From assembly GCA_002269645.1 (NCBI GenBank), contig NIVC01002692.1, forward strand, positions 1 through 56,744: a stretch of 56,744 bases of DNA. Reading direction: 5' to 3'. Position 1 is the first letter of the stretch. Each line of letters begins with the position of its first letter. The translations under genes were made by a program, and so were the position numbers. Positions 20,389 through 45,838 of this stretch are shown here, piece after piece. The DNA is from Macrostomum lignano. Taxonomy: Eukaryota. Under the pieces are notes generated by a model. The model was given only the letters and a program-made list of their open reading frames with translations, ran no database searches and was not told the DNA's origin.

Positions 20389-21549
20389 GCTGAGAGAGCA
20401 AGAGATTGCACTGCGCACCTACTGCAAGAGCCAAGAGGGAAACTATTGATTTACCTCCTCCCCGATGAGAACCAATGAGCTCACAGATTAAAAGTTGACC
20501 AAGCAACAAGGAATGATGGTGTACATTCTGCAGCACTTGTTGCGATGGAAATTTTCCTGATCCTGTACCCGCGGTCCGACAACCCCCAACCAAAAATTGT
20601 ATGGCAACGAAAAAACTTATAAAACCGGTAACAAGATAACAGAATATATAATTTCCGTTATCCAAAGTCATAACTGAAGCTGACAATTTTCAAGCCCAGA
20701 CATGCTTCCTGTCGAACGCTTGCTGTTCGTCTTCTTGGCGAGCATCCTGGTGGTAGTGACGCTGTTGTTCTACCAAGCCACCGCATCCAGCTCAGGCCAA
20801 AATGAACGCTACTACACTCAGGTGGGCACCGCTGGCGGCAACAGTTTCCCCCCAGCATTCAAAGTGCTCGAAGGCAGCAGCATTCGTTGCTCGATCTGGT
20901 GCTGGCAGACGCCGAGATGCCTCGGTTTCTACTGGACGGTGAGCTCGATGCTGTGCCAGCTGTTTAACGCTTCGGTCTACTACTGGAAACCGTCGTGGGG
21001 TGCCATTGCGGACCAGCAGAGCGAGTTCTACATGTACAACGCCAGTGAGTATTTCTTGTTCATAGATAGCGCGTGCGGATGTTCATAGATAGCGCGTGCG
21101 GACTAGCTGTACCTATGGGAGCTGAGAAATGAAGATGATTTCGCCTCCAGTTTAGGGAGTTCGGCCTTTGACTATTAACAAAATGACTTACAGAAGAAGT
21201 TCATTTTTAACAAGATATTCTCTGTTTAAGGCTACAACTGTATAACAGAATCTTCCGCGGCATCAATTGAAGACTTGTGTCTGGTAATTAGAAGCCGTCT
21301 CCGGTTGAAACGCCTGCTTCATGTGACGGGGGATGCCGCTTCTTCCTCAACAATTATTTCTAGGACTCGTTTTTAGGAAAATTCGATGTTACTTAAATTA
21401 GATTTACAGTAAACCTCATTTCGCGCGTCTCATTTCAGCTCCTCAGAGGCTGCATTTCTTCAACTGCAGCCAGATTTCAGCGGCCTATAGTGCCTTTTGC
21501 ACACGAGCCATGGACAACAACACGAATACGCATTTTTTTGATGGAGGTT

Positions 21550-21678
21550 AGTAGTATGGGATAACAGAACTCTGCCGCAGGAATTTCCGTGGAAAAGCCA
21601 TGGGCCCTAGTGAGTGAACATACGGCCCTATGTAAATCCATTGAGCGACTCTGCCGCAGGGCAGGCCATGGAAATTCC
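21550..21678 (+). repeat. Polinton left terminal inverted repeat (129 bp)
   Basis: Reverse complement of 37555..37683 with 5 mismatches by my count. Confidence 0.95.
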
Positions 21679-22299
21679 GTGAGACCTCCTAGTGAGAGTA
21701 CATTGGTGCAAGTATTTGCGAATGGGGTGGGGCTCCGCGGGAATTCCGTTAACCGCAATGAATGAGTATTGGCAAATGCGTGTTCTGCTACGACGGACAC
21801 AGGCGGTTCGGTTCATAAAACCAGGCAATGCTTTGCTTCTGAATGACATTTAATATTCCATCGGGTATCGTAAAAGGAGGAGGGGCGTGTCTTTATTTCA
21901 ATGATTACAATAAAATCAATTTGCAATTCATGTCTAAAATTTGAGCTACCAACTGTTGAAAAATCACTTGATTTTGGAATTTAAGGATTTTGGAATTTTG
22001 GAATTAATTGAAACTTTTGCCTATTAATTAGGCAAAAGTTTCAATAACAAGATGCTGCTTTAATAAGATTATAATAGCCAAGCATCTCCCCCTTTCTTGG
22101 GGTGGTGGGTGTGTTGCTAAATGGAATTGGACGCTCAATAATTATCAGTTTTATTGCTCCCCAGTCTGGTCGGGAGTTCCAGTTGGCGGCAAGTGCAAAG
22201 GAACTTTTGTACATGTATGCTTTCAATAGAGGCTCTGTATCTGGGTTTTCTAATAAAATTATTTTAAAAAACCGGTTTCTGAGACGGCTGGGTTACTGA

Positions 22300-22393
22300 C
22301 TGTAAACATAGCTAAGCTGTAAACATAGCTAAGCTGTAAACATAGCGGCTATGTTTTTATTAACACAGATTCGAATAAGCGAGGTATATAAGA
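22300..22393 (+). promoter_or_regulatory. Putative promoter of the left Polinton ORF: 3x 17-bp repeat containing TGTAAACA, then TATATAAGA
   Basis: ctgtaaacatagctaag at 22300, 22317 and 22334 (partial); TATATAAGA at 22385-22393, about 100 bp before ATG 22487. Confidence 0.6.
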
Positions 22394-22486
22394 CACCGTA
22401 TACTTGAATACGGGACATAAGTTTCTACTTCTAATTTGAATTTAACTTCAATTTGATTTTTCTATTCAAACATTAAAAAATTTGGA

Positions 22487-23833
22487 ATGAATAAATCGCG
22501 CTGCCCTTCATATGTGTACGAGGTATGCATTTCCTGCAACTCATGTGAGCTCGGTGGCTTAAAACGTCACAAAATGAAAAGCAGCTGCAATGTCAGTCGC
22601 TGGCTGCTTTGCCACGAGTGCCAGACGCGTGAGCTCTTTAATGTGCGCCAGCAAGTTCGAGCTCACAAAAACCACATTATTATTAACTGGAGCTCACCTG
22701 GAGATTTAAAACGAGCCCGCTTTGCTGCCTTGGAGGCTGCCCAGCGTCAAGAGCAGCTCAACATTATCGAGCGCAGTCGAGCACCGGTCAGCGCACTCAG
22801 CCAGACAATTCAGGGCGTCTTTCAGCAGCCTGATGAAGATTTTCAGCACGCTACCGATGCAAACTTTGATCTGCTTGCCGCTGCACTTGCCGCTGTGGAG
22901 CAGCAATCAGATTTTTTTGGTTCAACCGCTGCGCCAGCTGCTGATGCCGGCCTCCCAGCTGACGGTGCCGGCCTTCCAACTACTGATGCCGGCCTCCCAG
23001 CTGACGGTGCCGGCCTTCCAACTACTGATGCCGGCCTCCCAGCTGACGGTGCCGGCCTTCCAACTACTGATGCCGGCCTCCCAGCTGACGGTGCCGGCCT
23101 TCCAACTACTGATGCCGGCCTCCCAGCTGACGGTGCCGGCCTTCCAACTACTGATGCCGGCCTCCCAGCTGACGGTGCCGGCCTTCCAACTACTGATGCT
23201 GGCCTCCCAGCTGACGGTGCCGGCCTTCCAACTACTGATGCTGGCCTCCCAGCTGACGGTGCCGGCCTTCCAACTACTGATGCCGGCCTCCCAGCTGACG
23301 GTGCCGGCCTTCCAACTACTGATGCTGGCCTCCCAGCTGACGGTGCCGGCCTTCCAACTACTGATGCCGGCCTCCCAGCTGACGGTGCCGGCCTTCCAAC
23401 TACTGATGCCGGCCTCCCAGCTGACAGTGCCGGCCTTCCAACTGCTGATGCCGGCCTCCCAGCTGACGATTCCACTGGTTTTGCAGCTCCTTCGGAGTTG
23501 GATACTGCCTTCTTCGAGGATGTCGATTTGGAGCCTGTTGAGCTGGCAAATGAAGAAGCTGAGCAGCAACAGATGCCACCCTACAGGCCTGTTCCAGTCG
23601 CAGGAAAAAATATGGAGCAAGCCAGAATGATGGCAGAAGCAAGCCTATCCGATCTCCTGCGAGAATTCGAACCTCCTACTCCACCGGCTGCACCAGAAAT
23701 CCAAACCGGTGACATCCCAGTCGTAGAAGCCATGCCACCGATGCCACCGTCAGTCTGCATTCAGCTGGTACTACCGAGCAGAGTCGAGGGCGAGTATTTT
23801 ATTGACCTTGGGGAGGAACTCGCATTCGCTTAA
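22487..23833 (+). CDS. Polinton 448-aa protein: Cys/His-rich N-terminus with LxCxE (LLCHE), about 12.5 x 14-aa repeat, acidic/Pro-rich C-terminus
   Basis: Long ORF inside the TIRs, downstream of a TATA box; 42-bp coding repeat TTDAGLPADGAGLP at about 22935..23470. Confidence 0.75.
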   Translation: MNKSRCPSYVYEVCISCNSCELGGLKRHKMKSSCNVSRWLLCHECQTRELFNVRQQVRAHKNHIIINWSSPGDLKRARFAALEAAQRQEQLNIIERSRAPVSALSQTIQGVFQQPDEDFQHATDANFDLLAAALAAVEQQSDFFGSTAAPAADAGLPADGAGLPTTDAGLPADGAGLPTTDAGLPADGAGLPTTDAGLPADGAGLPTTDAGLPADGAGLPTTDAGLPADGAGLPTTDAGLPADGAGLPTTDAGLPADGAGLPTTDAGLPADGAGLPTTDAGLPADGAGLPTTDAGLPADGAGLPTTDAGLPADSAGLPTADAGLPADDSTGFAAPSELDTAFFEDVDLEPVELANEEAEQQQMPPYRPVPVAGKNMEQARMMAEASLSDLLREFEPPTPPAAPEIQTGDIPVVEAMPPMPPSVCIQLVLPSRVEGEYFIDLGEELAFA

Positions 23834-24532
23834 GTAGCTCTTAAAGTGTCCCAGTTCAAAGTATTTAAAAGTAGGGGAAACGAGATTTGTAGATTTTTAG
23901 GGTAAAACCAATGCATTCTACCCTGCATAAATATTAACTAATTACGTTGCACCTCATCGTGCTCATACAGGTTTCTCATAAACAAAGTGAAAAAGAAAAT
24001 AATTTAGGCTTACTGTTCAAACTTATTCTTATAATAAAGCTTTAATAAGCAGCTTTAATTAGTAGGGTGACTAACGAGCATGATTTTTTGCATTGCGAAA
24101 TGCTTTACCAGAAATATAATGGATTGATGGTTGCTTTTAATGAAAGCTTTTGCACTTTCTTGGACTTTGTTGAATTCATTACTTGTTTTTTTTCAATCAT
24201 GTGAATATCTTCGAAGAAGTTATAGGTTCACTCGCTTATAGAATTACCGTTAGGTTCACAGCATCTACTCAACTCTATGAGTATAATATGGGATTGATGA
24301 TCTATGATACCCAATGTTTAGAATGACATGAATTTGGTTTGTCAAGCATGACTTTGGTTAGATTCAATTTCTGCTCCATAGAGCTCTGAATGCTGGAAAT
24401 TTATCACTCCACTACATCTCTGACAGAATTGCACTTGGGTTAAATTTATCAAACAACACTTTTACACTGGAATTTCAGCAGCATTGAGTTCTTCACTAAA
24501 TGTCGCTCTATTTCTAATATTAATTCTCTGCA

Positions 24533-27500
24533 ATGGCCACCTCATCGAGTCAAGAGGACGAGCCGGTGGACCCAGCTGTCAGCCACGAATTTGGACCGAG
24601 TGGTAAGTTTTTTCATTCCATTGCTGGTTTTATGAACTCATGCATTTCTGTTTGTTGCATTCCTGTCTCTTAGCAACGGAATTATTTATATTTTTCTCGC
24701 CTACACAACAATTCCCAAATGGTTCCCAACAGGATTAAGCCGGAGAACTCACAATAATGAGACATTTTTATTCCTCATTAGATGAATTGACAAAAATGCG
24801 AAAGCAGAACTCCATCTATTTCTTCAATAATAACTCTTCAAATTCTTTTTTTACACTTATACGTAGCTCGTATTGATTAATAAAAAAATATTAAATCTAG
24901 ATATAAGGTAGTAGGATAAATAGTATACTCGTAAGTGTAAAAAAGGGCAATAAAATATTCGACTTCCATAACTCCCAGAGACATTTCTCATCATTTCCAC
25001 TTTCCATAAATATTTTTAATACTATCTTCCCTTCTTCAATTGTAGGACCTTCATTCACCCTGGCGTTAAAAACCAGCGCTCACGAAGATGTTCTTCAAGT
25101 TCATCGATTTACACCTGGAGCTGCCACTGAAACATTCGAGTTTCTCGATTTCTGCAAAATCGCAGTGCAGCAGTGTCTTGAAATTCGCTTCGACTCTTCG
25201 GATAATTGCTCTGTTAAAGCTCAGATCAAACTGAATTTGCGCATGGTCAGAGTGCAGGCGTCAGAAGCTGTCAAGGGGGAGGATAAATGGATGAGCACAC
25301 AACTCGGATTGGTGGTAGATATACAGGAGTTTGATGATTGGTGGAGACAGCAGTTTACAGAGCTGGAGCGCAAAGTCGATGTCTACAACACCAACGGTAG
25401 TGGCTGGATAATTGAAAAAATCAATTTTTTTGAACTTTACTCAGCTCTCGTCGAACGAGTTTCCTACTACACGGGGCATGCTGCGGAATTTATTCTACCG
25501 ACTCCACTTCTTCGGAAGAAGGCGGTTATTTGTCCTCCAAGCAATGGTGTAAATTGCTTTCTTTACGCATGCCTTGCTTTTCTGCACAAGGAAGACAACA
25601 AAATAAAGAAATCAGCGCAACGCGAGTCTTCCTACACTGACTGGCTGGATGAACTTAACATGAGTGGAATTGACTTGCCAATCAATGTCACCGACCTTTC
25701 CATTGTTGAGAGACTGAACCCGAGACTTTGCTTCACGGTTTTCATCTGGGAGAAAGAGAGCGCTCAAGTCCTCCGCTTGCCTACTGCAGCTACAATTAAA
25801 GATCGAGAAGTTGTTCTACTCTTATTTATTCCACCATCAGAAGACGAGGCCTCGGGTCATTGGTGTGCTGTTTCAAGCATCAACAGGCTTCTTAATAGCA
25901 AGGCAGCTCTGCATCGGCGGAAGTGGTGTGAGCGCTGCTTGCTGCCCTTTCATAGTGATGCAGCCTTTGAAGAACACAGCCGAGCTCCTTGTCAACCTGG
26001 AGTGATCAACGTCAAGGAAGAGTTGCCAGATGAAAGGAATAATATTCTCCGATTCTCATCATGGGAAAAAACAATTAGTCCGCCATTTGTTGTTTACGCC
26101 GACTTCGAAGCATTGAATGCTCCATGCCAAGAAGATTCGATTGCTGGTATAGCAACGAAGAAGTTAACTGAGCACATTGCTGTTGCTGCTGGCTACATCG
26201 TGCTGCACAGAGAAGGGATGACTGGTCTAGCGCCCAGAGGAGCGGATGATAAAGTGAGCACTTTTGTCAGCGACGATCCTAATAAGTGCATTTCCGATTT
26301 CCTGCAATCGCTGGAGAAGCTCGCTCGTGAAGTTTACGGCTGGAACACGGAGTTCAGTCGACAAGCAGCGATAAGAACAGAGATGGCAGGGCGACAGTTC
26401 AGAGAAGCCACAGCTTGCTGCTATTGTAGAAGCGAATTCACGGAAGGGTCCAATAAACATTGGGATCACGACCACCTCAGCGGAGAATTTCGGGGAGCTG
26501 CGTGTGCTGATTGTAATATGAAGGCCAGACTAAAGAGGTCTTTCCTTCCCGTCGTGTTCCACAATTTCAAGGGGTACGATCTCCATCTCATGATGTCATC
26601 CGCTTTGGGTCTGATGGAGGGTTGGAAAATCTCCGTCATCCCTCTGAATCCAGAGCAGTTTCTGTCGATGAAAATCGAATTTAAAATCGGCGAGTATGAG
26701 AGTGAGGGCAAGATCAAGCCTTTAAATTTTACTATTCAGTTCATTGATTCGAATCAATTTCTTAATGCCAGCCTCTCACAGCTCATCAAAAATTTACCAG
26801 AGGCTGAATGTCGTATCACTAGTCGCCTACGCAGCAGCAGATTCCCACTGCTATCATCCGAAGTGCTTTTCAGCAAGGGAGTTTTCCCGTATGACTATCT
26901 TAAAAATTCAGACGTGCTGAAGGATGCCGTGCTTCCCAGCCAAGAGAGCTTCTACAATGCTCTGACTAAGAGCCACTGCACCAACTCTGACTATGAGCAT
27001 GCTCAACGCGCCTGGCGAGAATTTCAGGTTTCAAATCTAAAAGAGTACATGCTGTGCTACCTCGAGCTCGACATCAGGCAGTTGGCTGATATTTTTGAAA
27101 ATTTTCGCAAGATCAGCATGCAAGAGGATGGCCTTGATCCAGTCCATTTTATTTCGACACCAGGCCTATCATTCGCTTCGGCATTGAAATCCATCAAGTC
27201 AGGGATTGAACTGCTAACAGATGCGCAGATGTATTCGCTGTTTGAGCGCGGCATTCGCGGCGGCATGTCGTTTGTTAACATCCACAAAGTGCAGGCTACC
27301 TCAGCAGCGGGCGCCAGCACTGGTGTTGACAGCAATGAGGATGTTGATGGTGGCACTCCTACTATTCATGCTGGCCTCACCGAGCTTCTTGCTGTGGATG
27401 CAAACAACCTGTATGGACAGGCGCTCACTATGAACTTACCAGTCGGAGGATTCCGTTGGCTGGACGATGATGAGCTGCTTTTGTGGACTGAAGATCGCAT

Positions 27501-28688
27501 TCGAGGACTCAAGCTAACCGATCCACTCGCCTACCTCTTTGATGTTGACCTTGAGTATCCCCCAGAGATTCACGAAACCACCGAAGACCTACCATTTGCA
27601 CCGGAAAAGGCTGCCCCGAATTTCAGGGAATTTCCTGAATACATGCAGCAGCTGTGGGAAAAGGTCGGTACGGAGAACTCCACCTATCATCCGACAGAGA
27701 AGCTGATGCTCACTTGTCACGATAAGCCTTCCTATGTGGTTCATTCCTCTATTTTGGCGTTCTACCTGAACCATGGAATGCGGGTTAGACGCATCAATCG
27801 CATGATTGAGTTTCACCAAGAGCCTCTCTTTGCTGCCTACGTCGAGAAAAATAGCCAGAAGCGGGCTGCAGCGAAAACCAACTTCGAAAAGGATTTCTAC
27901 AAGTTAAAGAATAACGCGCTATTCGGCAAAACTATGGAGAATGTGCGAAAGCGGCGTGATATTCGAGTCTGCACCAACGTGGAAAAGGTAAAGGTACTGC
28001 TTGCCAAGCCGACAATTACCAATTTTATCATAATTACTGATTCACTAAGCGTTTTGGAACTGCAAAAGACAAAATTAAAGCTCGATCGGCCTATTTTTAT
28101 CGGGCAATGCGTCCTAGACTTTTCGAAAATGATTATGTACGAGCTGTTTTACGACAAACTGAAGCCCTGGATAGAGAACGATGGAGGTGTCATCAAGCTA
28201 TGCGGTGGTGATACCGATTCTTTCTTTCTCTCAATCAGCAACATGAGCGTTCAGTCTAAAGTTCTACCGCTGTTGAAGTCGAAGCAGCTGCTCGACACTT
28301 CAAACTATCCTCAAGAGCACGCGCTATTCTCGAATGATTTAAAAGCGCGACTTGGCTGCATTAAGGATGAAGCAGCCGGTGCTCGCTTTGAGGAGTGGCT
28401 GCTCCTAAGGCCGAAGCTTTACTCATTCAAGGCGAGTAGCCAAGCCGCGGAAAAGAAGAAGGCCAAAGGAGTTCAAGGATGCATTGTTAAGAAAGAGCTG
28501 GCTCACAGTGACTACCTAAGGGTGTTCAATGAGCTCTGCAGCCATTCTGTCGTTGTTCATCGTATTGCCAGCATCCATCACCGACTGTACACTTTGCAGC
28601 AGCGGAAGTGTGCCTTAAGCATTTGGGAAGACAAGCGCGCTTGGCTGAGCCCTAACTATAGTCTCCCATTTGGTCACATTCGGCTGCT

Positions 28689-28757
<69 letters not shown>

Positions 28758-28845
28758 GCAACAGCAGCAACAACAACAACAACAACAACAACAACAGCAG
28801 CAGCAACAGCAGCAGAAATCATCAAAACGGCGCCGACTACTTTGA
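24533..28845 (+). CDS. polB: Protein-primed family-B DNA polymerase, predicted join(24533..24602,25046..28845)
   Basis: Exo I YADFE, endonuclease-VII-like insert (CCYC..DHDHLSGEFRGAACADCN), Exo II HNFKGYD, DANNLYG, KLKNNALFGK, GDTDS, PKLY; polyQ tail and KRRR. Frame open from 25046; phase-1 intron GTAAGT..TTGTAG. Confidence 0.92.
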
Positions 28846-29405
28846 AATTGAATAATGAGTACAACAAGCTTGCTAAACAAAAACAATAATTTCTTTGCGA
28901 TTTCAAAGTTTCTTTCTTTGACATTGAATAAAGGTTAACCGCTAATCTAAATAGGATTTTTTCCAAATGCAATAAAAACTTTGATCATCTGCTGAGGCTA
29001 GCAACAATTTTTTGCTTCACAATATTTACTTACAATTGCGCGATGATGATAATGAAACCAATGCTTCGTTAGTGGTGGTGGTGGTGTTTGCGGTGATGGC
29101 ATGTGAGAGTTTTATTTTTTTCTAATTTTACCTGTACTTTGTGGTTGGTTTTTTGAATCCTGATATTGCTTTATAAGTTTTAATATATTCCATCTGCTTT
29201 TGGACTATTTTTTCCTATTTTTGTAGTGGTTTATCTGCTTGCTCGTATTTGCTTTTAGCTTGCTATTTGTTTATCTCTACAAGATGTTCACCACTGGTTT
29301 TTCATTGCAATTAAAAATGAAGACAAAAAAGCTAGTGCATGAGAGAGAATTAATTTGAATATTTTAATTAAACAAGCCGCGATTTATTCTTTCTTTTTAT
29401 TTATT

Positions 29406-29972
29406 TCAGTTTGAAAGCAAGCAAGCTAATAGGGAACGGTCTGATTGTAGCATATGCTTAGACTTTGCTCCGCTGAGCACAAATGAGCCATTGTGAAAAA
29501 GCGTACACTTGCAGTATTGAAGCTGACAAACTAAAGCAGTAAAACTTTCAGGTTCATATTTCGCATTCGGTAGCACTTCACAGAGGTTTCTTAGTGATAG
29601 AGCCTTGGGCAAGTCTATTTTTCCATAAGCAGTAATAGTCTTAATTCGGACACAAACGGATTGACGAGGCAGCAGTTGAGGCGGAACTCTGCGATGCAGC
29701 ATAGCCACGAAGCGACGGGCAGCCTTGACTGAGGCCGAGTAGCTCCGGGCGCCACAGATACTCAGTTGTCCAGTCGGATAGAGCAACAGAGTCACTCTGG
29801 GATTCCGCATCCTCTTGATGAGCACTCGGGGCCAGACGGGGCGATAGATGACATGAGCCATGCTGAGAGCCAGTTCCCGCAGAGGCAACTGGGCACCCCT
29901 GCCTCCAGCCAGCCTCAGATCCACGCCGCCAACCAGATTGGTCACTCGCAGGGCTGTCGCAGGTGTACTCAT
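29406..29972 (-). CDS. TBP: Polinton-encoded TATA-binding protein homolog (188 aa, both core repeats)
   Basis: VTNLV..VDL, YRP.WP.V.I.RMRNPRVTLLLYPTGQL.ICGARS...S..AARRF; then YEPESFTAL...CTLFHNGSFVLSGAKS. This matches the TBP core consensus in both halves. Confidence 0.88.
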   Translation of the reverse strand: MSTPATALRVTNLVGGVDLRLAGGRGAQLPLRELALSMAHVIYRPVWPRVLIKRMRNPRVTLLLYPTGQLSICGARSYSASVKAARRFVAMLHRRVPPQLLPRQSVCVRIKTITAYGKIDLPKALSLRNLCEVLPNAKYEPESFTALVCQLQYCKCTLFHNGSFVLSGAKSKHMLQSDRSLLACLLSN

Positions 29973-30486
29973 TTAGAGAGTCCTTTCTGTCAGTGGTGCT
30001 GTCTTTGAGAGCCTTTGAGTGGTGCGGGCACACCTCGCTTCTTAAGTTGATACAGAACTTTGGCTTCAGCCAGTTGTAGTAGAGCAATACATTTTTCACT
30101 GCACAACCAGTATCAGATGCTTGAATCAAAGGTGATCCCAGATCCTCTAGGTTGTACACCTGTCTGCCAAGCAGCTCAGTCAGAAAGATGGACTTTTTCA
30201 CCCCGCTTGTCCAGGTGGGGCCGTAAGCAATGTTTAGAATGTCATTTGCCAAATGCATGTACGATCGGGATCCATCTGTCCACTTGAAATGATGCAAATT
30301 CTTTGAGAGCTTTCTGTAATGCACCTGCATCTCAGGTGAGATTCGCTCCCATGAGAACGGAGAGGCGTACACGTGATGAGTGATATGGTAACTGCCTGCC
30401 CGGACTTGGGCAATGGCTAGCTCCTTCACAACGAAATCTCTGCTCGATCTCTCGCGTGGGAAGCCTTGGAAGTCAATATAGTTCAT
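29641..30486 (-). CDS. Polinton accessory protein, possibly DEDD/DnaQ-like fold (first about 165 aa); 3' part overlaps the TBP ORF
   Basis: YIDFQGF..FVVKELA, HHFKWTDG, VYNLEDLG, CAVKNV..Y.WL pattern recalled from Polinton hypothetical proteins; fold call is inference. Confidence 0.6.
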   Translation of the reverse strand: MNYIDFQGFPRERSSRDFVVKELAIAQVRAGSYHITHHVYASPFSWERISPEMQVHYRKLSKNLHHFKWTDGSRSYMHLANDILNIAYGPTWTSGVKKSIFLTELLGRQVYNLEDLGSPLIQASDTGCAVKNVLLYYNWLKPKFCINLRSEVCPHHSKALKDSTTDRKDSLNEYTCDSPASDQSGWRRGSEAGWRQGCPVASAGTGSQHGSCHLSPRLAPSAHQEDAESQSDSVALSDWTTEYLWRPELLGLSQGCPSLRGYAASQSSASTAASSIRLCPN

Positions 30487-30526
30487 GATCGGATGGTTTC
30501 AAGATGCCTGATATCGGGAAGCCGAC

Positions 30527-31219
30527 TCAGTTCCCCTTCTTAAATAGTTTTTTCCTGTTCAGCTGTAGCCAAGCTCTCCCACTCCCGAATCCTTTAACTG
30601 TATGATGAGCAGGGGCGGCCTCTGGAGAAACAGCAGGTTTAGAAATTAGCTGCCTAACTGACTTTCCTATGGCCGAAGCTGGGATGTTAAGCTTTTTATC
30701 TTGGAGCAATGAGACAAACTCACTCCAGCCCACCGGCTCGCTGGCACATTTCGAATCCCTCACGGCACTGTGAAACAAATCCAGGATGTTTGAGGAGGGT
30801 ATTGTCTTCCCACAAATTTGCGCCTCGCCATTTTCGGACACCCGAATCAGAGAAGGATTGCCAGATAGGATGGCCCATAGACTGCGGGCTCTCGCTTTAA
30901 ACTTCTGCGGCACGGATTGGGTGATCTTTTCCCCCCAGCTGCTTGGTGCAATATCAGTTTTCAGCATCTTTGCATCACTCGCAGGTACCGCATCATCCTT
31001 TCCAGTCCGCTTGCGCTTGGCCAGCAAACTCTTCATCGCATCATGGTACATGGCAGCTTTCACATCGTCTGGGCAATCCTCGGCAAGCAAAATATCATTG
31101 CATTTCCTCTGCGCATATCTCACAGCAGTGTCGAGTTCAGACTCAACTGGCTTCAAATTCTGTGTGAGCATGTCGTATTCTGACTTGGGGATCAGAACCA
31201 TTTCTGAGAACTTATTCAT
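30527..31219 (-). CDS. Polinton hypothetical protein (230 aa)
   Basis: Co-oriented ORF in the gene block; MVLIP..YD.L and G..I..SNILDL motifs resemble recurrent Maverick proteins. Confidence 0.75.
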   Translation of the reverse strand: MNKFSEMVLIPKSEYDMLTQNLKPVESELDTAVRYAQRKCNDILLAEDCPDDVKAAMYHDAMKSLLAKRKRTGKDDAVPASDAKMLKTDIAPSSWGEKITQSVPQKFKARARSLWAILSGNPSLIRVSENGEAQICGKTIPSSNILDLFHSAVRDSKCASEPVGWSEFVSLLQDKKLNIPASAIGKSVRQLISKPAVSPEAAPAHHTVKGFGSGRAWLQLNRKKLFKKGN

Positions 31220-31559
31220 TTTGTTTCTTTTTCTTCACTAGCTTTATTAGAATGTAGAGAATTTTGATAAAACCCGTATTTAGCAGATCCGCAGCTCTTC
31301 TATGTGTAGAAATTTTGCGGATTATTTGCTTTTGCTTCACTAGCGCTGCCTTTTCAGTGAGTGAGAACGACAGAGTGTTTTGCAATAGGTTATAGCAGGC
31401 CTCAATGAGAAATTCATGTACTGCTTTTGGACCCGCTCTGATCAACAGACGTTTAAAGCTGATGGAATATTTCGGTGAGGCGAGAACATCAAACAAACTT
31501 TCATGTGAGTCGAATGTTTCCATTATCATTAGTGTTGCAGAATATAGAGCAAATGGCAA
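31212..31559 (-). CDS. Small basic Polinton protein (115 aa) with amphipathic C-terminus
   Basis: LIEACYNLL.N.L.F....K..L.K.K.IIRKI pattern typical of the small gene next to the Polinton ATPase. Confidence 0.7.
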   Translation of the reverse strand: MPFALYSATLMIMETFDSHESLFDVLASPKYSISFKRLLIRAGPKAVHEFLIEACYNLLQNTLSFSLTEKAALVKQKQIIRKISTHRRAADLLNTGFIKILYILIKLVKKKKQNE

Positions 31560-31576
31560 AATCTCGGCTGTTATTC

Positions 31577-32230
31577 TTAAGTGTAAACCAGGTGGGGTCG
31601 CTGATTGGGCAGGATTCGAGCCCGGACCCGCAGCTCATCAGGGGTGGAAGGGTGAAAATCCAGGAGCAGGTAGGCTCCCCTGCCGTGCGATGTCACGTGC
31701 TTGAACACTGACAGCAGAAAGCCGGGCTTCTCAGCAAAACACTGCCTGCCCAGCGCCGCAATCTGCAGCTGGTCTCTGGGGTTCTTCATGATCACAAAGT
31801 ACATCGCATTCAGACTCATTGTTCGCAACTCCTTCCCTTTAAAAAATACATTTTGGGTCAGCATAACCAGAAAGCAGGGCAAATGATGGGCAATTCCAGT
31901 GAAAACATTTCGCATTGCAGCAGAATTGGAAGTTTCTTCAATCAGGTCATCAAATACAACCAGGTCATTGGGTCTCAGTGCGGTCTCGATACTGCTGGGA
32001 AATCCCTGCTGCAAGTGCACGCCGAGACTGCTGAGCTCAGAGTGTGCTGCTTGTGAAATTCCGTAGTACCACAGAACTCTCCCAGGCTTCACATCAAACA
32101 TGACATCCTTGTATTGTATCAGATGTTTCACGAAGGTTGTCTTTCCTGCATTTGTAGGCCCGCTGACAATCATGCAGCTTCCTTGTCGCAGGCGCACATC
32201 ATAACAGTTTATCCGCTCACGTGTTTCCAT
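31577..32230 (-). CDS. DNA packaging ATPase (A32/FtsK-HerA type)
   Basis: Walker A GPTNAGKT, Walker B LVVFDDL, LTQN, RTMSLNAMY, YLLLDFHP. Confidence 0.93.
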   Translation of the reverse strand: METRERINCYDVRLRQGSCMIVSGPTNAGKTTFVKHLIQYKDVMFDVKPGRVLWYYGISQAAHSELSSLGVHLQQGFPSSIETALRPNDLVVFDDLIEETSNSAAMRNVFTGIAHHLPCFLVMLTQNVFFKGKELRTMSLNAMYFVIMKNPRDQLQIAALGRQCFAEKPGFLLSVFKHVTSHGRGAYLLLDFHPSTPDELRVRARILPNQRPHLVYT

Positions 32231-32263
32231 CGCCTGTTGAGCTAAATCCTTGATTTTAAAAGT

Positions 32264-32782
32264 CTAATTAAATTTATTTTTTCTTAAGCAACTCTCAAAC
32301 CTTTGCAGAATTCTTTCATTCAAGTGGCTCTGCTGATTTGCATGGAGGTGCCGCAGAACCCACTCAAACGAGCGCTTGAAACGAAACTTTTGATAGGCAA
32401 ACAAGAGACAGAACAAACCGCATTTAGCAGAGTTGCAGCTCTGAATTCGATTCACATTGCTACGTAAGTAGAATGGAGAATACCAAAAGGATTTCAGTGC
32501 TCTGTGAATGATCTCTAAAGTGCTTGAGTCCCAGCCCAGAGAGTTAAAGAGTTCTATGGAATTCTCCTTATTGGCATAACAAACCACCCAGTGACCAAAG
32601 GACGAGCCGTACTGAAGCAGAAAGAAAATAAACCTACATCGAGATAAATTTCTTTTGAGAGTTGCTCGCTGAATAAAGTTTAAAGCATAAGATGTTTTAT
32701 TTATTGAATTCAAGACAATAATTAAATAGTTATTTTGTGGCAAAAAGCTTTTAGCCAGTTTAAGCAGTTGAAAAGCATCCAT
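32264..32782 (-). CDS. Adenain-type cysteine protease
   Basis: GHWV, FNSLG, QS.NSAKCGLFCL (His, Asn/Asp, Gln, Cys order of adenoviral proteases). Confidence 0.9.
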   Translation of the reverse strand: MDAFQLLKLAKSFLPQNNYLIIVLNSINKTSYALNFIQRATLKRNLSRCRFIFFLLQYGSSFGHWVVCYANKENSIELFNSLGWDSSTLEIIHRALKSFWYSPFYLRSNVNRIQSCNSAKCGLFCLLFAYQKFRFKRSFEWVLRHLHANQQSHLNERILQRFESCLRKNKFN

Positions 32783-32805
32783 ATTAGCGTTGCGCCAGCG
32801 TACTC

Positions 32806-34088
32806 CTAGGATGGAAAATCTAGCAGAATCTCCCTGTGCTTCGTGACCTCAATCAGTGAGTCATACAGGCACATAACAATCAGAGATACAGGCTCCTCCA
32901 GGGCCTGTCGGAAGCGAATCTCCAGCCGCAAATTTCCCTCCTTCTGTCCGTACCACAGGGCCGCTCCCTCAGGCGTGAGATCGAATGCGAAAGCTGTGTT
33001 GCCGTTGGAGAACAACTGGTAGGGGACCCACGGAACCGAGTTGGTAGGGCTGGCAGACTGACAGCTTTTCAGGTAGTGCAAGTACTCTCTCACGAATGAA
33101 TTATTCTCAGGTGCAAATGCAGCGTGGCACATGGCTTCACCACCTTTCTTTAGTGCTAGCTGGCTGAGGTTGAAGCTCTGGAACTCGAAGGGGCTGGAAT
33201 GGTGATGGCCATTGAAGGCTCGGTGGTTCACGAAGACCAGCATAACGAACTTCGGCAGTTTGCCATGGGTGAATCCTTCAATGTTTTTTGACTGAATTCC
33301 CTGGGGTAGAATGAAGTTTTGCATTTCGGTTCGCTCGATGGGGTAAAGTGCGTTCTGATTGGTAAGTCCCTGCTCATGCGCTAGGCTGATGTGAGGCGCC
33401 ACTTTGACTCGGCGCAGGTTCAGAATACAATGGGAAATTTCAATTCGGTAGGCTGTGTTGTTCTCATCTGGGGTTCGGATGGCAAATGCAGCTTCACTGG
33501 GCATCAGCTTGATGTGCAGGTGTAAATTGTTCAGCAGCAGAACAGGACACTGGAAGATGTCGCTGAGCAGCGGTCCCGCATACTCCACCCAGCGGGACTC
33601 CCTGTGTCTCTCGGCATGCCCCTCAGCAGCAGTTTCGGGTTCCAGGAATCCGGCGGGGTAGAAATTTAACTGCTGAGCATCGGATGAGCTCATGAGAGCT
33701 TTTAGGTAGGCATGGTAGGGGTAGAGCTGGTCTCCGCCAGAGACAATGCGCTGGTTGATGCTCACGATTACATCTGAGAATGCCGTAGATAGGACAAAGT
33801 TTTCTGGGTGCACCCCACTGTCTCTGCGCTCAGTGACAACTCCATCGGCATTCCGAACCTCCTCCCTCATCAAAGCCCCGCCAAGCCGGACTAGGCGACA
33901 GCGAATATACAGGAATGAGCTCAGCAGATCAGTGTACTCATCAGCCGATGGATGGCAGTCGAATTCAATTGGTGAGTTAGTAGAAATAGAGTTCACGGGG
34001 TGAATATCAACATACGTGATTTTTCAATAGCAGTCTGCAGCACGGGGGACTTGAACAAATCGAGTCTCGGGTTGAATCCGTAAGCCAT
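32806..34088 (-). CDS. Major (double jelly-roll) capsid protein; 1-nt deletion at about 34017 in this copy
   Basis: Near-identical to intact 427-aa ORF 42012..43295; acgtgat here versus acgttgat there; position and size fit the Polinton major capsid. Confidence 0.85.
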
Positions 34089-34090
34089 TG

Positions 34091-34507
34091 CTATGAGAGT
34101 GAGTCCAGAACACGCTTCACAGTTTCTTTGCCCACTTTTTGTTTTCTTTTGCCTGTTTTCTTGGCCTGTGTTTTAGTCGTTCTTTTCTTAGGTTGCTTGC
34201 TTGTTCTGACCTTGCTTGTTTTGCGTGCTTCGCCACTTTTTTTCTTCTTCTTCATGCGCACCTGCTTTTTATTCACCTTTTTAGCCTGTCCTTGATTTCC
34301 TATGTTTCTATTACTCGTACTATTGCTTCTGCTGCTACTGCTGGTTTGTACAGGCTTTGATGCTAATGATGATGATGATGTTATGGAAGGTGCTGGAGGA
34401 GGCTGGTAAGTCATTATTCCAGGAAAACTCCCGCAGCCATAGAGCATGGACTTTTCATTTCCCGTCCGAGTCCCTGAATACTGCCGAATCAGCTGCTGAT
34501 AGTTCAT
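34091..34507 (-). CDS. Lys/Ser-rich basic protein (138 aa), candidate DNA-condensing core protein
   Basis: Strongly basic C-terminal half; sits between the two capsid genes. Confidence 0.7.
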   Translation of the reverse strand: MNYQQLIRQYSGTRTGNEKSMLYGCGSFPGIMTYQPPPAPSITSSSSLASKPVQTSSSSRSNSTSNRNIGNQGQAKKVNKKQVRMKKKKKSGEARKTSKVRTSKQPKKRTTKTQAKKTGKRKQKVGKETVKRVLDSLS

Positions 34508-35331
34508 TGCATTGGTCTCTCACGTATCAGAATTGTGAGCAGAACAGGGCTGCCGCTATGAGCAGTCAGTGAGAAGCCAAAGATGTCTCGCAGTTGAACT
34601 CGAATGCTGTGTAGAAAATTTGTTTTCTGAATGGGGAAGAAAACTGTTTTCTTAAACACTTTGCTCCAGTAGCTTCCCCATCCGGCTTCAGGATTCATGT
34701 TCACAGTTCGCAGCAGGGAATTCCAGTTGCAATTAGTTGACTCCACAATGCTACAATGCACGTTGATCAGATTGGTGGGCGGGCAGCCAATGTGGTACAT
34801 GGAAACTTGGCGCCCAGGTGGAATTTTCACGGACTGATTTCCGAATCCCAGCCACTGCAGAATTTTACTTGATGGAAGGAATAATTCTGCTCGAGCCGTG
34901 TTGTTGAGCACTACCGTTCTCAATTCTTGGATCTCAAACTTTATGCCAATATCTCTAGCGCTGCTCCGCCCCATTAAACCAGACTCATCAGCCTCCATTT
35001 CAGACTCCCTCTCACTCATTGCATCGAAGAACAGTGACTCAGAGTTGGCCAGCAGCTCATTCATGCGCTCCACCAACTCCTCCACTCTAGCAAAGCGTCC
35101 GGGTTGAAGAACCAAGGCCTCATGCTCTCTTCCATCTGAGACAGTGAAGCAGTAAGGCTCGTCAACATTGAACCATGCAGCAGGCAGATGGATTTCAGCC
35201 AGACCTGCCTCATAGTCCACATTTCGATCCAAGTAAATAGGTGAAGGCAGGTGAAAATGAAAGTCAGCAGGAGTACCTTCAGCATTTTCGCTGTTAATGA
35301 TGATGCTTCTCATAATTGGGAATGGCTGCAC
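34504..35331 (-). CDS. Minor capsid (penton-like) protein; likely ATG start at 35313
   Basis: NSE......PADF.F.LP.PI.L....YEAGLAEI.LP, I.VHCSIVE, LLR.V, I.VQLRD..G pattern of Polinton minor capsids. Confidence 0.8.
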   Translation of the reverse strand: MQPFPIMRSIIINSENAEGTPADFHFHLPSPIYLDRNVDYEAGLAEIHLPAAWFNVDEPYCFTVSDGREHEALVLQPGRFARVEELVERMNELLANSESLFFDAMSERESEMEADESGLMGRSSARDIGIKFEIQELRTVVLNNTARAELFLPSSKILQWLGFGNQSVKIPPGRQVSMYHIGCPPTNLINVHCSIVESTNCNWNSLLRTVNMNPEAGWGSYWSKVFKKTVFFPIQKTNFLHSIRVQLRDIFGFSLTAHSGSPVLLTILIRERPMQ

Positions 35332-35343
35332 AATGTCGGCATC

Positions 35344-36411
35344 TTACACTTTTCTTAAGTCCTTCTCATCCACCCAGTCAGTGGAGTCGTAGCCGGCCCA
35401 CTTGACCAGATATCGGATCTTTCCCTGCCGCTTCTCAGTCTTCAAAATCTTTTCAATCACATACAGCCGCTGCGACTCCGGAACGGCCTGCAGTTCATGC
35501 TCGTGAAAAAGCCCACGAATCTCTTCTCCTTTCATGTCTTTTATCTTGTACATGTAGGGATAATGCTTTGGAGCTCTGGACACCACCGTGTACACTTCTT
35601 CGCTCCAGTTGGCCTTGTACCCTTTTCTAAAAAGCCTGGGTGCATTGGAAATCCGCACAGACTGGTTTTCGCTGAACTTTGGCTTTCCCAGCTTTTCCAC
35701 AGTTTCAATCGCTTTCCCGTCATATAGGCTCATCCAGACCTCGGACTCGTTCTCCTGGCTGACATTCGTTGGGGCCATTCGTATGCTTCTGTGGTATGTT
35801 TTGTTGTAGGACTTCACTAGCTTAGGCAACACATCAAGCCAATGCAGAGTGCTGTTGTGAGTGAAGTAGCGCCACATTTTGCTCTTTAAAGTTCGGTTCC
35901 ATCGTTCAATGACAGCCGCCTTCTGCTCACTGTTGGTTGGGAATGCCAGGATTCCCCTTTCCATACAGCATTGGCGAAAAGTAGAGTTGATAAACTCTTT
36001 CCCCTGATCAGTGCGAACAGTGCGCGGTTGCCGCTTTGAACTTCTTAATATGCTCTCGAATGCCGACTTCACTTCAATAGAAGACTTGTTCTTTAATGCC
36101 CTCGCCCATCCGTACTTGGACAGCACATCAATGCATGTTAGAATATACCTGTAGCCGTTATTATACTTGGAAAAAGGAATCATCTCCACCAGATCCAACT
36201 CCCATTGGTCATCAATACTTCGAACTATGATTGGGGCCCTCGGATAATTCCTCCTTGCTGGCTTATGTAATGTGTAGACTGTCTGATCGTTAAGCCAGTT
36301 TTTCGCAGCTTTTTCACTCACTCGGATACCCTGCGTGCGAACTTCATTAATAAATTTATTGCAGCCAGAAAAGCTTGCTGGCTGCTCAGGGTTAAAGTAA
36401 ATCTTTTCCAT
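35344..36411 (-). CDS. Retroviral-like (rve) integrase with C-terminal chromodomain
   Basis: WELDLVEM, RTDQGKEF, ERWNRTLK (DDE triad), YN.TYHRSIRMAP, YVIEKILK....YLVKWAGY...WV. Confidence 0.95.
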   Translation of the reverse strand: MEKIYFNPEQPASFSGCNKFINEVRTQGIRVSEKAAKNWLNDQTVYTLHKPARRNYPRAPIIVRSIDDQWELDLVEMIPFSKYNNGYRYILTCIDVLSKYGWARALKNKSSIEVKSAFESILRSSKRQPRTVRTDQGKEFINSTFRQCCMERGILAFPTNSEQKAAVIERWNRTLKSKMWRYFTHNSTLHWLDVLPKLVKSYNKTYHRSIRMAPTNVSQENESEVWMSLYDGKAIETVEKLGKPKFSENQSVRISNAPRLFRKGYKANWSEEVYTVVSRAPKHYPYMYKIKDMKGEEIRGLFHEHELQAVPESQRLYVIEKILKTEKRQGKIRYLVKWAGYDSTDWVDEKDLRKV

Positions 36412-36631
36412 TTTTAATTAGAGAAAAAATTAAACTCATTTCGCATTCTTAAGTTCACCAGTAAACTAGCATAACTATAGAGAGAGATGCTTATTTTATT
36501 TTATTTTTAATTTTAAACGAGCTCATTTAATAGGACATTAATGAATAAGCTGAAAAAGCTGGATAAATAGAACTGTTAGACATCAATACAGATGGCATAG
36601 CAATGTCCACGCATAGTCACTTAAAAAGTTA

Positions 36632-37360
36632 TCAAGCACTTTTGTCTGCGTCACCATCCTCTCCACCATTGATCACTTTGGGCAACTTGATTGCATTTTG
36701 CCTGCGCAGGGGCCACGGAAGCTTTCGTTTGTGACAGCCGCTGTTGCCGAGCCCTGAAGCAGCACGGAACCGGTACCACAGTGGGTCGTGCGACAGGTCG
36801 CTGTCTTGCTGGGGTATGCGCCCGACTGAAGTCTCTGGCAGAACAGGCGAGCTGGTTGCATTGTCCGACTCGACGATGCGCAGCCTCTTCTCTTCTTCTT
36901 CTTCTTCTTCGCTGACCGGCAGAGTTTCTTGGCCCTCATGCTTGATGTCCTCGGCCTCCAGCTGATACTCACTCTCCGCCGACTTCTCTCGCAGCTCGTT
37001 GTCGATCCACTCGGCCTTCTTCCAGAGTTCTCCCCATAGACGGGGAGTCAGCGCCACTGAGTTCCGCCGCAGATAATCCTCTGTACAGTCTTCCGGCAGG
37101 CGCTTCAGCCAGATGATACCCCTGCTGACCACAACGAGTTTATCAAAGCCAAGCTTGACTGTGACGCTGTGCCGATTGACTGCCGAGTGCACAAGCTGGC
37201 GTTTCAGCTGCTTCAACTTCTCCCATTGGTATGCATTGAGGTTAAAGCCAGGGATGCCCGCTCTGAGCCCGCTTTCAGAGGAGAAGAAACGTCGGATTGC
37301 AATAAAGCGATGACCTTCGTACTCTTGCACTTGAACTTTGAAGCCGTCACAGAGATCCAT
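36632..37360 (-). CDS. PC4/Sub1-like ssDNA-binding protein with two PC4-like repeats and acidic tail (242 aa)
   Basis: KVQVQEYEGHRFIAIRRFF....RAGIPGFNLNAYQWEKLK matches the PC4 core; second SVALTPRLWGELWKKAEWIDNEL; poly-Glu. Confidence 0.75.
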   Translation of the reverse strand: MDLCDGFKVQVQEYEGHRFIAIRRFFSSESGLRAGIPGFNLNAYQWEKLKQLKRQLVHSAVNRHSVTVKLGFDKLVVVSRGIIWLKRLPEDCTEDYLRRNSVALTPRLWGELWKKAEWIDNELREKSAESEYQLEAEDIKHEGQETLPVSEEEEEEEKRLRIVESDNATSSPVLPETSVGRIPQQDSDLSHDPLWYRFRAASGLGNSGCHKRKLPWPLRRQNAIKLPKVINGGEDGDADKSA

Positions 37361-37433
37361 TAATGATATGTTTCTTTAAGAAGGATGCACAAAAATTCCT
37401 TTCGTCATGAAGCCAACCTCAAAAAATCGCCCA

Positions 37434-37442
37434 TCTTATATA
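37434..37442 (-). promoter_or_regulatory. TATA box (TATATAAGA) upstream of the PC4-like gene
   Basis: tcttatata on + strand, about 75 bp upstream of ATG 37360; same 9-mer as at 22385. Confidence 0.55.
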
Positions 37443-37554
37443 TACTTTCTAGGCGGAGTGGGGTGGGTGCAATAATGAGTTTCCTTCAGTACATATACCA
37501 GCATGCGCTTTGTTATCTCACCGGGCCCCCATGCCCACCCGATGTGCCCCCCAT

Positions 37555-37683
37555 GGAATTTCCATGGCTTTCCCTGCGGCAGAGTCGCTCAATGGATTTA
37601 CATGGGCCCGTATGTTCACTCACTAGGGCCCATGGCTTTTCCACGGAAATTCCTGCGGCGGAGTTCTGTTATCCCATACTACT
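37555..37683 (-). repeat. Polinton right terminal inverted repeat
   Basis: Ends ...cccatactact followed by TSD gaggtt. Confidence 0.95.
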
Positions 37684-40275: not shown

Positions 40276-40417
40276 CTCGCAATCCTCGGCAAGCAAAATA
40301 TCATTGCATTTCCTCTGCGCATATCTCACAGCAGTGTCGAGTTCAGACTCAACTGGCTTCAAATTCTGTGTGAGCATGTCGTATTCTGACTTGGGGATCA
40401 GAACCATTTCTGAGAAC

Positions 40418-40765
40418 TTATTCATTTTGTTTCTTTTTCTTCACTAGCTTTATTAGAATGTAGAGAATTTTGATAAAACCCGTATTTAGCAGATCCGCAG
40501 CTCTTCTATGTGTAGAAATTTTGCGGATTATTTGCTTTTGCTTCACTAGCGCTGCCTTTTCAGTGAGTGAGAACGACAGAGTGTTTTGCAATAGGTTATA
40601 GCAGGCCTCAATGAGAAATTCATGTACTGCTTTTGGACCCGCTCTGATCAACAGACGTTTAAAGCTGATGGAATATTTCGGTGAGGCGAGAACATCAAAC
40701 AAACTTTCATGTGAGTCGAATGTTTCCATTATCATTAGTGTTGCAGAATATAGAGCAAATGGCAA
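40418..40765 (-). CDS. Small basic Polinton protein, copy 2
   Basis: Same translation as 31212..31559. Confidence 0.7.
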   Translation of the reverse strand: MPFALYSATLMIMETFDSHESLFDVLASPKYSISFKRLLIRAGPKAVHEFLIEACYNLLQNTLSFSLTEKAALVKQKQIIRKISTHRRAADLLNTGFIKILYILIKLVKKKKQNE

Positions 40766-40782
40766 AATCTCGGCTGTTATTC

Positions 40783-41436: not shown

Positions 41437-41469
41437 CGCCTGTTGAGCTAAATCCTTGATTTTAAAAGT

Positions 41470-41988: not shown

Positions 41989-42011
41989 ATTAGCGTTGCG
42001 CCAGCGTACTC

Positions 42012-43295: not shown

Positions 43296-43297
43296 GC

Positions 43298-44538: not shown

Positions 44539-44550
44539 AATGTCGGCATC

Positions 44551-45618: not shown

Positions 45619-45838
45619 TTTTAATTAGAGAAAAAATTAAACTCATTTCGCATTCTTAAGTTCACCAGTAAACTAGCATAACTATAGAGAGAGATGCTTA
45701 TTTTATTTTATTTTTAATTTTAAACGAGCTCATTTAATAGGACATTAATGAATAAGCTGAAAAAGCTGGATAAATAGAACTGTTAGACATCAATACAGAT
45801 GGCATAGCAATGTCCACGCATAGTCACTTAAAAAGTTA

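Follow-up and report, generated by a model that had tools for sequence, protein, structure and literature searches.

A Polinton in a Macrostomum lignano lectin exon carries a TATA-binding-protein paralog and a motif shared upstream of several of its genes

Introduction

Polintons, or Mavericks, are inserted by a chromodomain-bearing rve integrase with a 6-bp duplication, and a protein-primed polymerase copies their linear genome from its terminal inverted repeat (TIR) ends. Packaging of this genome would fall to an ATPase, a protease, two capsid proteins and a basic core protein. Here we describe such an element in the flatworm Macrostomum lignano, at positions 21550-37683 (16,134 nt) of contig NIVC01002692.1 (GenBank assembly GCA_002269645.1), the analysed stretch of which, 56,744 nt in full, is called the window below. 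The element encodes a TATA-binding protein (TBP) paralog and shares a short motif upstream of several of its genes; both of these unusual features were absent from the first-pass annotation of this DNA.

Among the closest described systems, the Mavericks of vertebrates have the end motif (AGT)2//(ACT)2 and number 134 intact copies, so intact Polintons are not rare and completeness alone is ordinary; particles of animal Polintons have not been observed (PMC8097293). The penton gene of Polintons lies one gene away from that of the major capsid protein (MCP; PMC4028283), the 'Oncoid' of adintoviruses is defined in PMC8502044, and the role of vOTU in the protein-primed polymerase pPolB is described in PMC11161782. 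An HNH domain has been reported as confined to the pPolB2 of nematodes and oomycetes (bioRxiv 10.1101/2023.08.22.554363). With regard to viral TBPs, ORF24 of KSHV (Kaposi's sarcoma-associated herpesvirus) serves as a viral TBP (vTBP) of TATTWAA late promoters (PMC12529657), and PMC7221094 describes two glutamates that contact TFIIB and a Phe-to-Tyr change that affects TATA binding.

Results

The element is a Polinton integrated in an F-type lectin exon

The element starts with AGTAGT at its left terminus and ends with ACTACT at its right terminus, and its limits in the window are marked by the following features, in which TSD stands for target-site duplication.

21544..21549, plus strand: left TSD (6 bp), within an F-type lectin exon; the hexamer is single at the empty site
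21550..21678, plus strand: left TIR, with the AGTAGT start; 5 mismatches in 129 nt
37555..37683, minus strand: right TIR, with the ACTACT end
37684..37689, plus strand: right TSD, where the lectin exon picks up again
53214..53636, plus strand: empty-site paralog, an uninterrupted F-type lectin exon with the target hexamer once, at 53338-53343

The TIRs are identical at 124 of their first 129 positions, with a further mismatch at position 130 and identity gone from 133 onward (a repeat finder gives 132 nt at 95%), and the hexamer GAGGTT stands on either side of the element, a 6/6 match expected by chance at about 2e-4. When the window was compared with itself by BLAST, both flanks (20432-21549 and 37684-39272) were found contiguous at 52210-54928 with the hexamer present once. 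This empty paralogous site at 53338 fixes the element boundaries independently of the TIRs. The element disrupts an F-type lectin exon (Pfam F5_F8_type_C_2, 2.5e-9) in which the pattern H-x26-R-x-D-x4-R, which we take to be the fucose-binding motif, is present. Copies of this exon lie at 21420-21549 plus 37684-37982 (the copy split by the Polinton), 46890-47188 and 53214-53636, and minisatellite arrays with 23-bp and 40-bp units lie between the copies (18809-20376, 39647-40275 and 48853-51505).

The flanks and the empty paralog show zero differences over 20849-21549 and 37684-37990 (~1 kb), with divergence beyond, so the insertion is probably recent. Two points weigh against a young age, namely that gene conversion between the lectin paralogs could yield identical flanks as well, and that the TIRs mismatch at 5/129 positions. 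Overall we regard it as nearly certain that this is a Polinton/Maverick (polintovirus) recently integrated in a Macrostomum flatworm, within an F-type lectin exon. The core Polinton features identified in the element are TIRs, TSD, end motif, pPolB, integrase, adenain-like protease and double-jelly-roll (DJR) MCP.

These results confirm the AGTAGT ends, 129-bp TIRs and 6-bp TSD that the first-pass annotation had read, and add the five TIR mismatches and the single hexamer at the empty site. The convergent gene layout that it gave, with 2 open reading frames (ORFs) on the plus strand and 11 on the minus strand, was likewise seen here, and its suggestion of recent activity gains new support from the difference-free flanks and from the catalytic motifs in pPolB and integrase. 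A 13-nt sub-repeat that occurs twice in the TIR (21569 and 21648) is a possible site for replication or integration proteins. Folding of the left end was no better than that of shuffled sequence (z -1.17), and an Rfam scan of the window gave 0 matches.

The element encodes a divergent TBP

29406..29972, minus strand: TATA-binding-protein paralog, 188 aa, with the full two-lobe saddle; P48 and Y65 replace the Phe pair of the N-terminal lobe (N-lobe), and F144, F159, E140 and E142 are retained

In a Pfam scan that covered 13 element proteins this product matched the TBP family at 1.3e-22 in two stretches, and it also matched 35 TBP sequences of the PDB; archaeal NCBIfam TBP models matched it too, all below cut-off. 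Its fold model reached a pLDDT of 84.7 (the other four models, 69-72), and in Foldseek the top 44 hits (E<=0.001) among the matches listed were TBPs, with TM ~0.8 at 21-25% identity. A profile search of 1.84 billion representatives returned 5 matches at <1e-30 followed by a drop to general TBPs. The paralog is full-length in four relatives, with 66-75% identity and an invariant core. Its closest named relatives are Macrostomum lignano proteins with 75% and 94% identity; the first-pass description of the host as poorly sampled is only in part correct, as M. lignano is a sequenced laboratory flatworm, although literature searches gave no paper on its Polintons or Mavericks.

A quick tree of 151 TBP-like rows placed the paralog with five close relatives (support 99) and with one more (98, SH-aLRT) in a 7-row group that is set apart from the cellular-type rows. 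This group is nested, with weak support (92), in a 21-row set of short divergent TBP-like proteins; the tree is unrooted with long branches, excluded the fused models P0005 and P0028-P0030, and does not identify a donor. The divergent proteins near the paralog are P0033, P0043, P0044, P0060, P0062, P0066, P0075, P0078, P0110, P0115, P0122, P0128, P0158 and P0162, and they may be viral. A profile search meant to name this divergent group returned mostly cellular TBPs (best 120 of 350), and an Atlas search returned generic TBP clusters with recognition under the guide value.

All seven members of the group keep E140, E142, F144 and F159 and have the N-lobe Phe pair replaced, and E140 and E142 are present in 13/13 aligned rows. 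The paralog therefore differs from canonical TBP in two of its four intercalating phenylalanines (P48, Y65), a comparison that for the N-lobe rests on three named cellular TBPs, two reference rows being confined to the C-terminal lobe (C-lobe); the conserved Asn of the C-lobe is T112. By our own mapping onto the positions of PMC7221094, E140 and E142 would correspond to the TFIIB-contact glutamates C.L3.2 and C.L3.4. Family scans of the element's proteins gave no TFIIB-like gene.

A shared motif precedes six of the element's genes

Six sites with the 8-mer CTTAAGAA or the 7-mer TTAAGAA lie a short distance ahead of genes of the element.

30039..30046, minus strand: CTTAAGAA, 74 nt upstream of the TBP start
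30537..30543, minus strand: TTAAGAA, 57 nt upstream of ORF281
31574..31581, minus strand: CTTAAGAA, 52 nt upstream of ORF105; includes the ATPase stop codon
32281..32288, minus strand: CTTAAGAA, 58 nt upstream of the ATPase gene
35352..35359, minus strand: CTTAAGAA, 46 nt upstream of the minor capsid gene
36446..36453, minus strand: CTTAAGAA, intergenic, 42 nt upstream of the integrase gene

Within the element the 8-mer occurs on the minus strand at 5/5 sites, each 42-74 nt ahead of a sense-strand ATG, and with TTAAGAA it precedes 6/13 genes; its count in the 34,001 non-element bases is 0. Under null models a shared 8-mer of this frequency was obtained in 0/3000 dinucleotide shuffles and 15/5000 random placements, and a shared 7-mer in 2/3000 shuffles and 10/5000 random placements. 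The most conservative null, which tested position family-wise across 124 frequent 7-mers, gave 14/2000 pseudo-start sets (p=0.007), and control windows gave p ~0.02-0.03 at best.

These figures bear on the reading that the TBP-like gene is cargo which the element has picked up and which does nothing at present, that the motif arose by chance or from codon usage, and that the element is an ordinary Polinton. Such a reading is helped by the post hoc discovery of the motif, by the choices of k=7/8 and of window that went with it, and by a p value that is 0.007 under the strictest null. It is at odds with the codon usage, in which Leu is written as TTA in 7% of cases and Arg as AGA in 20%, yet 3/29 Leu-Arg pairs have the coding TTAAGA, two of them at motif sites. 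It also leaves the full-length ORFs of the four relatives with their invariant core, the synteny with a sister family (see below) and the confident fold to be accounted for, and we consider it improbable.

The reading that we prefer, tentatively and at slightly less than an even chance, is that the element has a private late promoter for its own TBP to read, in the manner of the herpesvirus vTBP. Host TBP would read the terminal genes early, that is, the Oncoid-like ORF448 and the PC4-like gene, by way of ordinary TATA boxes; these two genes do have a canonical TATATA, not the variant motif. The paralog would then bind the variant box (C)TTAAGAA before the genes for integrase, minor capsid, ATPase, ORF105, ORF281 and itself, and its conserved C-lobe glutamates would serve to bring in host TFIIB and RNA polymerase II; the outcome would be a one-protein late switch with positive feedback. 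A broader version, in which an animal Polinton lineage has a helper-independent early/late programme built from a single captured and re-specified TBP, a private TTAAGAA promoter and host TFIIB, and hence a viral late-transcription switch smaller than any other known and convergent with the herpesvirus vTBP, is in our view less likely than not. The 21-row divergent group may represent the same module in other Polintons.

Several observations weigh against the private promoter. The motif was found post hoc, as just noted, and in one element. Among the six proximal sites, four lie 4-24 nt from the stop of the upstream gene and one contains the stop codon. The MCP gene has a site at -104 with one mismatch, the core-protein gene has one at -148, and the protease gene and ORF230 have no motif within 300 nt; MCP, protease and ORF230 lack an exact proximal site, so key late genes fit worst. 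Of the eight TTAAGAA sites on the sense strand, two are not in the 30-80 nt window. The motif might also be recognised by host TBP, because cellular TBP structures have been solved on single-base TATA variants (as given by PDB entry titles), and Giardia TBP, which is without these phenylalanines, can prefer single-stranded DNA (ssDNA; PMC12209930).

Much of this would be expected if motif and paralog were uncoupled, with a host factor, TBP or another, reading the motif, or with the motif serving as a 3'-end or splicing signal, and with the paralog acting as a decoy for TFIIB or TBP regulators that damps host transcription, or as an ssDNA binder in strand-displacement replication. The sites at the 3' ends of upstream genes, the three genes with no exact site, the change of half of the intercalating phenylalanines together with one lobe's conserved Asn, and the ssDNA binding of the divergent Giardia TBP all favor this alternative. 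However, the sites of the integrase and TBP genes take their position from the next ATG, the former being 179 nt past the upstream stop and after AATAAA signals, and the latter 405 nt from the nearest stop. Furthermore, ordinary TATA boxes already serve the terminal genes, and the PC4-like protein is a separate candidate for ssDNA binding in the element. We give this alternative serious weight, at a probability clearly under an even chance, and retain the private late promoter as our preferred reading.

Gene content of the element

The remaining genes and signals are as follows.

22385..22390, plus strand: canonical TATA box, 102 nt upstream of ORF448; putative early promoter for host TBP
22487..23833, plus strand: ORF448, with Cys/His-rich N-terminus, LxCxE (aa 40), CxxC pairs, a 14-aa repeat x12.6 and an acidic tail
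24533..24602, plus strand: predicted first exon of pPolB, 70 nt, with ATG and GTAAGT donor; phase fits the acceptor at 25045
25046..28845, plus strand: pPolB, Pfam DNA_pol_B_2 (PF03175) 7e-14
29641..30486, minus strand: ORF281, no significant match; overlaps the TBP gene by 332 nt
30527..31219, minus strand: ORF230, with a counterpart in the sister family (59% to a segment of P0028)
31212..31529, minus strand: ORF105, a small basic protein
31577..32230, minus strand: P-loop ATPase, a packaging ATPase by position and Walker A
32264..32782, minus strand: adenain-type maturation protease (H64, N80, Q114, C121)
32806..34088, minus strand: DJR MCP gene, with a frameshift near 34017 in this copy
34091..34507, minus strand: basic protein, 138 aa, pI 11.2, 25% K+R
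34504..35313, minus strand: probable minor capsid protein (mCP, penton), weak match; one gene away from MCP
35344..36411, minus strand: rve integrase, D73/D135/E169 motifs, C-terminal chromodomain
36632..37360, minus strand: PC4-like ssDNA-binding protein, canonical TATATA 82-84 nt upstream

Apart from DNA_pol_B_2 and TBP, the Pfam scan matched Endonuclease_7 (7e-7), Peptidase_C5 (4e-5) and rve (1.8e-12), and below cut-off it matched Chromo (3e-5) and PC4 (8e-5); the ATPase gave weak P-loop matches, and ORF281, ORF230, MCP, mCP and ORF105 had no match. When eight queries were searched against Pfam at E<=10, 7/8 had no match and the basic ORF gave low-complexity noise, which lends no backing to the labels 'Maelstrom', 'GasderminX', 'PZ' or 'PW'. 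By position, ORF230, ORF105 and the basic ORF are candidates for the PZ, PW and PM genes that belong to the definition of an 'intact' Maverick (PMC8097293). The identities that the first-pass annotation assigned to pPolB, integrase and protease are thus backed by Pfam matches and that of the MCP by its fold. Its general picture of a Polinton that has both its termini and a full virion module holds up, with the mCP and ATPase assignments resting on weak matches and position.

ORF448 fits the 'Oncoid' definition, having LxCxE beside CxxC pairs 5' of PolB, motifs short enough for chance to be possible. A 42-bp repeat x12.6 (98% match) at 22941-23468 forms the 14-residue repeat between its Cys-rich head and acidic tail. 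In pPolB the Exo I-III and Pol A-C motifs are present along with an EndoVII/HNH insert and, at the motif level, vOTU-like Cys and His, and a sequence search of the PDB with pPolB gave no match. The first ATG of pPolB is 112 codons inside the open frame, which is best explained by a spliced 5' exon with a predicted intron at 24603-25045 (443 nt); the acceptor at 25045 is one of two pyrimidine-rich acceptors in the stretch upstream of the pPolB ATG. The EndoVII/HNH domain lies between Exo I and Exo II, at residues ~481-540 of the frame 24907-28845. A CAG/CAA microsatellite at 28690-28814 encodes a ~40-residue polyglutamine tail that is followed by a basic KRRR end, a possible nuclear signal.

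On the minus strand, ORF281 reads 110 codons (29641-29972) into the TBP gene in another frame. Against PDB sequences it had a single match at E 0.34, and its Maelstrom-like look, which is our own impression, was not confirmed. A gene model, P0029, is 100% identical to ORF281 over the first 219 aa and then shifts into the TBP frame. A genuine ORF281-TBP fusion, as hinted at by this model, was rejected, for it would replace the conserved TBP N-terminus that is stand-alone in P0001-P0004. An M. lignano model, the chimeric P0028, contains MCP, ATPase, ORF230 and TBP pieces that are 59-90% identical to those of the element and in the same order, and these pieces belong to a sister family.

Within the virion module, the ATPase shows Walker A and weak generic P-loop matches (including PDB sequences), and its position points to the FtsK/HerA-type (A32-like) family. 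The Peptidase_C5 match of the protease scores 23.8 bits against a cut-off of 21.3, and its third catalytic position holds Asn, which differs from the residue that is presumably usual there. The 138-aa basic protein is probably the core protein. The mCP has Atlas scores of 0.97-0.98 to virus-rich clusters, one of them with PF21507 in 26% of members, at a recognition of 2288 that is below the guide value of 2300. The integrase has DDE motifs in addition to its rve match (1.8e-12) and a chromodomain-like tail.

The capsid gene is frameshifted in this copy and open in a partial duplicate

40279..46889, no strand assigned: tandem duplicate limited to the element's right 6.6 kb, preceded by a 23-bp minisatellite; its MCP ORF (42012-43295) is uninterrupted

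The right 6.6 kb of the element (~31073-37683) and 2.6 kb of flank are present in a 9.2-kb tandem duplication at 99.8% identity; the duplicate is without the left TIR, ORF448, pPolB, TBP and ORF281. A 1-nt frame difference at 34017 leaves a 354-aa MCP ORF in the full-length copy and an uninterrupted 427-aa ORF in the duplicate, so the capsid lesion that the first-pass annotation reported, and its absence from the duplicate, are both present. A fold model made from the natural 427-aa ORF (pLDDT 83.5) matches the MCPs of iridovirus, PBCV-1, mavirus and Sputnik (E 1e-11 to 1e-14) as well as viral predicted structures. Relatives of this ORF, full or partial, number 22 at 27-80% identity, to which one chimeric model is added; an MCP profile gave no match to PDB sequences, and of 78 pattern matches for MCP relatives in bacterial/archaeal genome contigs 0 were confirmed. 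The frameshift removes residues 1-73 from the MCP ORF of the full-length copy, and since 19/22 relatives cover at least 66 of these residues the lesion matters.

Owing to the frameshift in one copy and the partial extent of the other, neither copy is complete as sequenced. The first-pass suggestion of a virion-competent element gains no support here, the capsid gene being frameshifted as sequenced and the duplicate lacking a polymerase. Its statement that the frameshift is the only obvious lesion may be too narrow, given the Asn in the protease and the reach of ORF281 332 nt into the TBP gene. If the frameshift at 34017 is genuine no full-length capsid would come from this copy, and the duplicate or sister copies could supply one.

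It is plausible, though somewhat short of an even chance, that the frameshift and the tandem duplicate are both assembly products and that one uninterrupted element occupies the true locus. Specifically, past the junction the two copies differ at nine places, all of them in the 6.6-kb element part and 0 in the 2.6-kb flank (P ~0.03), as expected from admixed reads of family copies; either sister-copy reads mixed in the assembly or gene conversion could produce such element-only differences. P0029 shows another 1-frame shift in near-identical sequence, and M. lignano assemblies are reported to hold erroneous paralog copies and chimeric scaffolds (PMC10733133). In contrast, the differences are mostly substitutions, with 4/6 of the isolated ones being transitions, those at the MCP start preserve the stop and spacing and so resemble real variation, the indel at 34017 lies within a run of just 2 bases, and the duplication junction has short minisatellite-element similarity as in template-switch duplications. 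The differences cluster at the capsid start (34017-34191 versus 43223-43398), where the adjacent stop and spacer also carry frame-neutral changes, and this cluster suggests a tract from another family member.

Elsewhere in the window, a reverse-transcriptase fragment at 1656-2858 (RVT_1 3.5e-5, below cut-off) is probably a decayed retroelement, and MITE-like short inverted-repeat elements lie at 10089-10270, 16015-16190, 17173-17472 and 16427-16854, with one family occurring twice.

Discussion

A dedicated TBP with its own promoter, if true, would argue for an autonomous viral cycle that times its capsid genes without a helper virus, and the paralog would be a natural example of a TBP whose DNA specificity has changed while its reliance on host TFIIB has not. 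If TBP and motif are not linked, the element would be a well-preserved, ordinary Polinton with an unusual accessory gene.

Among the papers listed by searches of the open literature, none dealt with a TBP gene or with a promoter of an animal Polinton. In the accessible text, 'TATA' was not found in PMC11131425, PMC11161782 and bioRxiv 10.64898/2026.10.13.758929, nor 'TBP' in bioRxiv 10.1101/2023.08.22.554363, and the animal adintovirus maps of PMC8502044 have no TBP label in the extracted text. For this virus group a TBP-like gene is nonetheless not a complete novelty, given that the Fig. 5 legend of PMC8502044 (bioRxiv 10.1101/697771) labels a 'TBP' in the MELD virus(es). The likeness is that of a TBP-like gene in a polinton-related element; the MELD 'TBP' is a bare label in the section on non-animal datasets, and promoter or function are undiscussed in the accessible text.

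Compared with the adintoviruses (PMC8502044) and vertebrate Mavericks (PMC8097293), the element is alike in its 16.1-kb length, TIRs, 6-bp TSD and (AGT)2//(ACT)2 ends, and in having pPolB, rve integrase, a putative packaging ATPase, adenain, DJR capsid, a probable penton one gene from the MCP and an Oncoid-like ORF upstream of pPolB. It is unlike them in adding a TBP paralog and a common upstream motif, in the location of its ATPase gene in the virion block and not beside pPolB, and in the MCP frameshift of this copy. It also has a predicted 5' intron in pPolB, whereas intact vertebrate Mavericks are reported to be intronless, and the frameshifted MCP and partial duplicate place it outside the definition of an 'intact' Maverick (PMC8097293). 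Its HNH-type nuclease insert in pPolB is shared with Polintons of the pPolB2 class from nematodes and oomycetes (bioRxiv 10.1101/2023.08.22.554363), and if the element's enzyme is a pPolB2, a flatworm HNH pPolB would weaken the claim that this domain is confined to those two groups.

With regard to TBPs, the paralog resembles cellular TBP and TRF2/TBPL1 in its saddle fold (TM ~0.8), and the change of its N-lobe aromatic has a parallel in the Trp of TBPL1. It differs from them in its ~24-31% identity, absence of an N-terminal extension, intronless gene, location in a mobile element and separate tree group. Like the TBPs of large dsDNA viruses it is two-lobed and virus-encoded; in those viruses the L5.1 Phe is mostly kept, the TFIIB glutamates vary and a viral TFIIB is present, and the element has the reverse pattern (PMC7221094). 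The logic proposed here, in which host TBP would act early and a TBP-like viral factor would act late on a variant TATA, is that of the beta/gamma-herpesvirus vTBP (PMC12529657). This is an analogy only, as KSHV ORF24 belongs to a six-protein complex and binds polymerase II directly, whereas the element has a minimal 188-aa TBP with the putative TFIIB-contact glutamates. It is this TBP paralog, with its candidate private promoter, that sets this otherwise typical Polinton apart.

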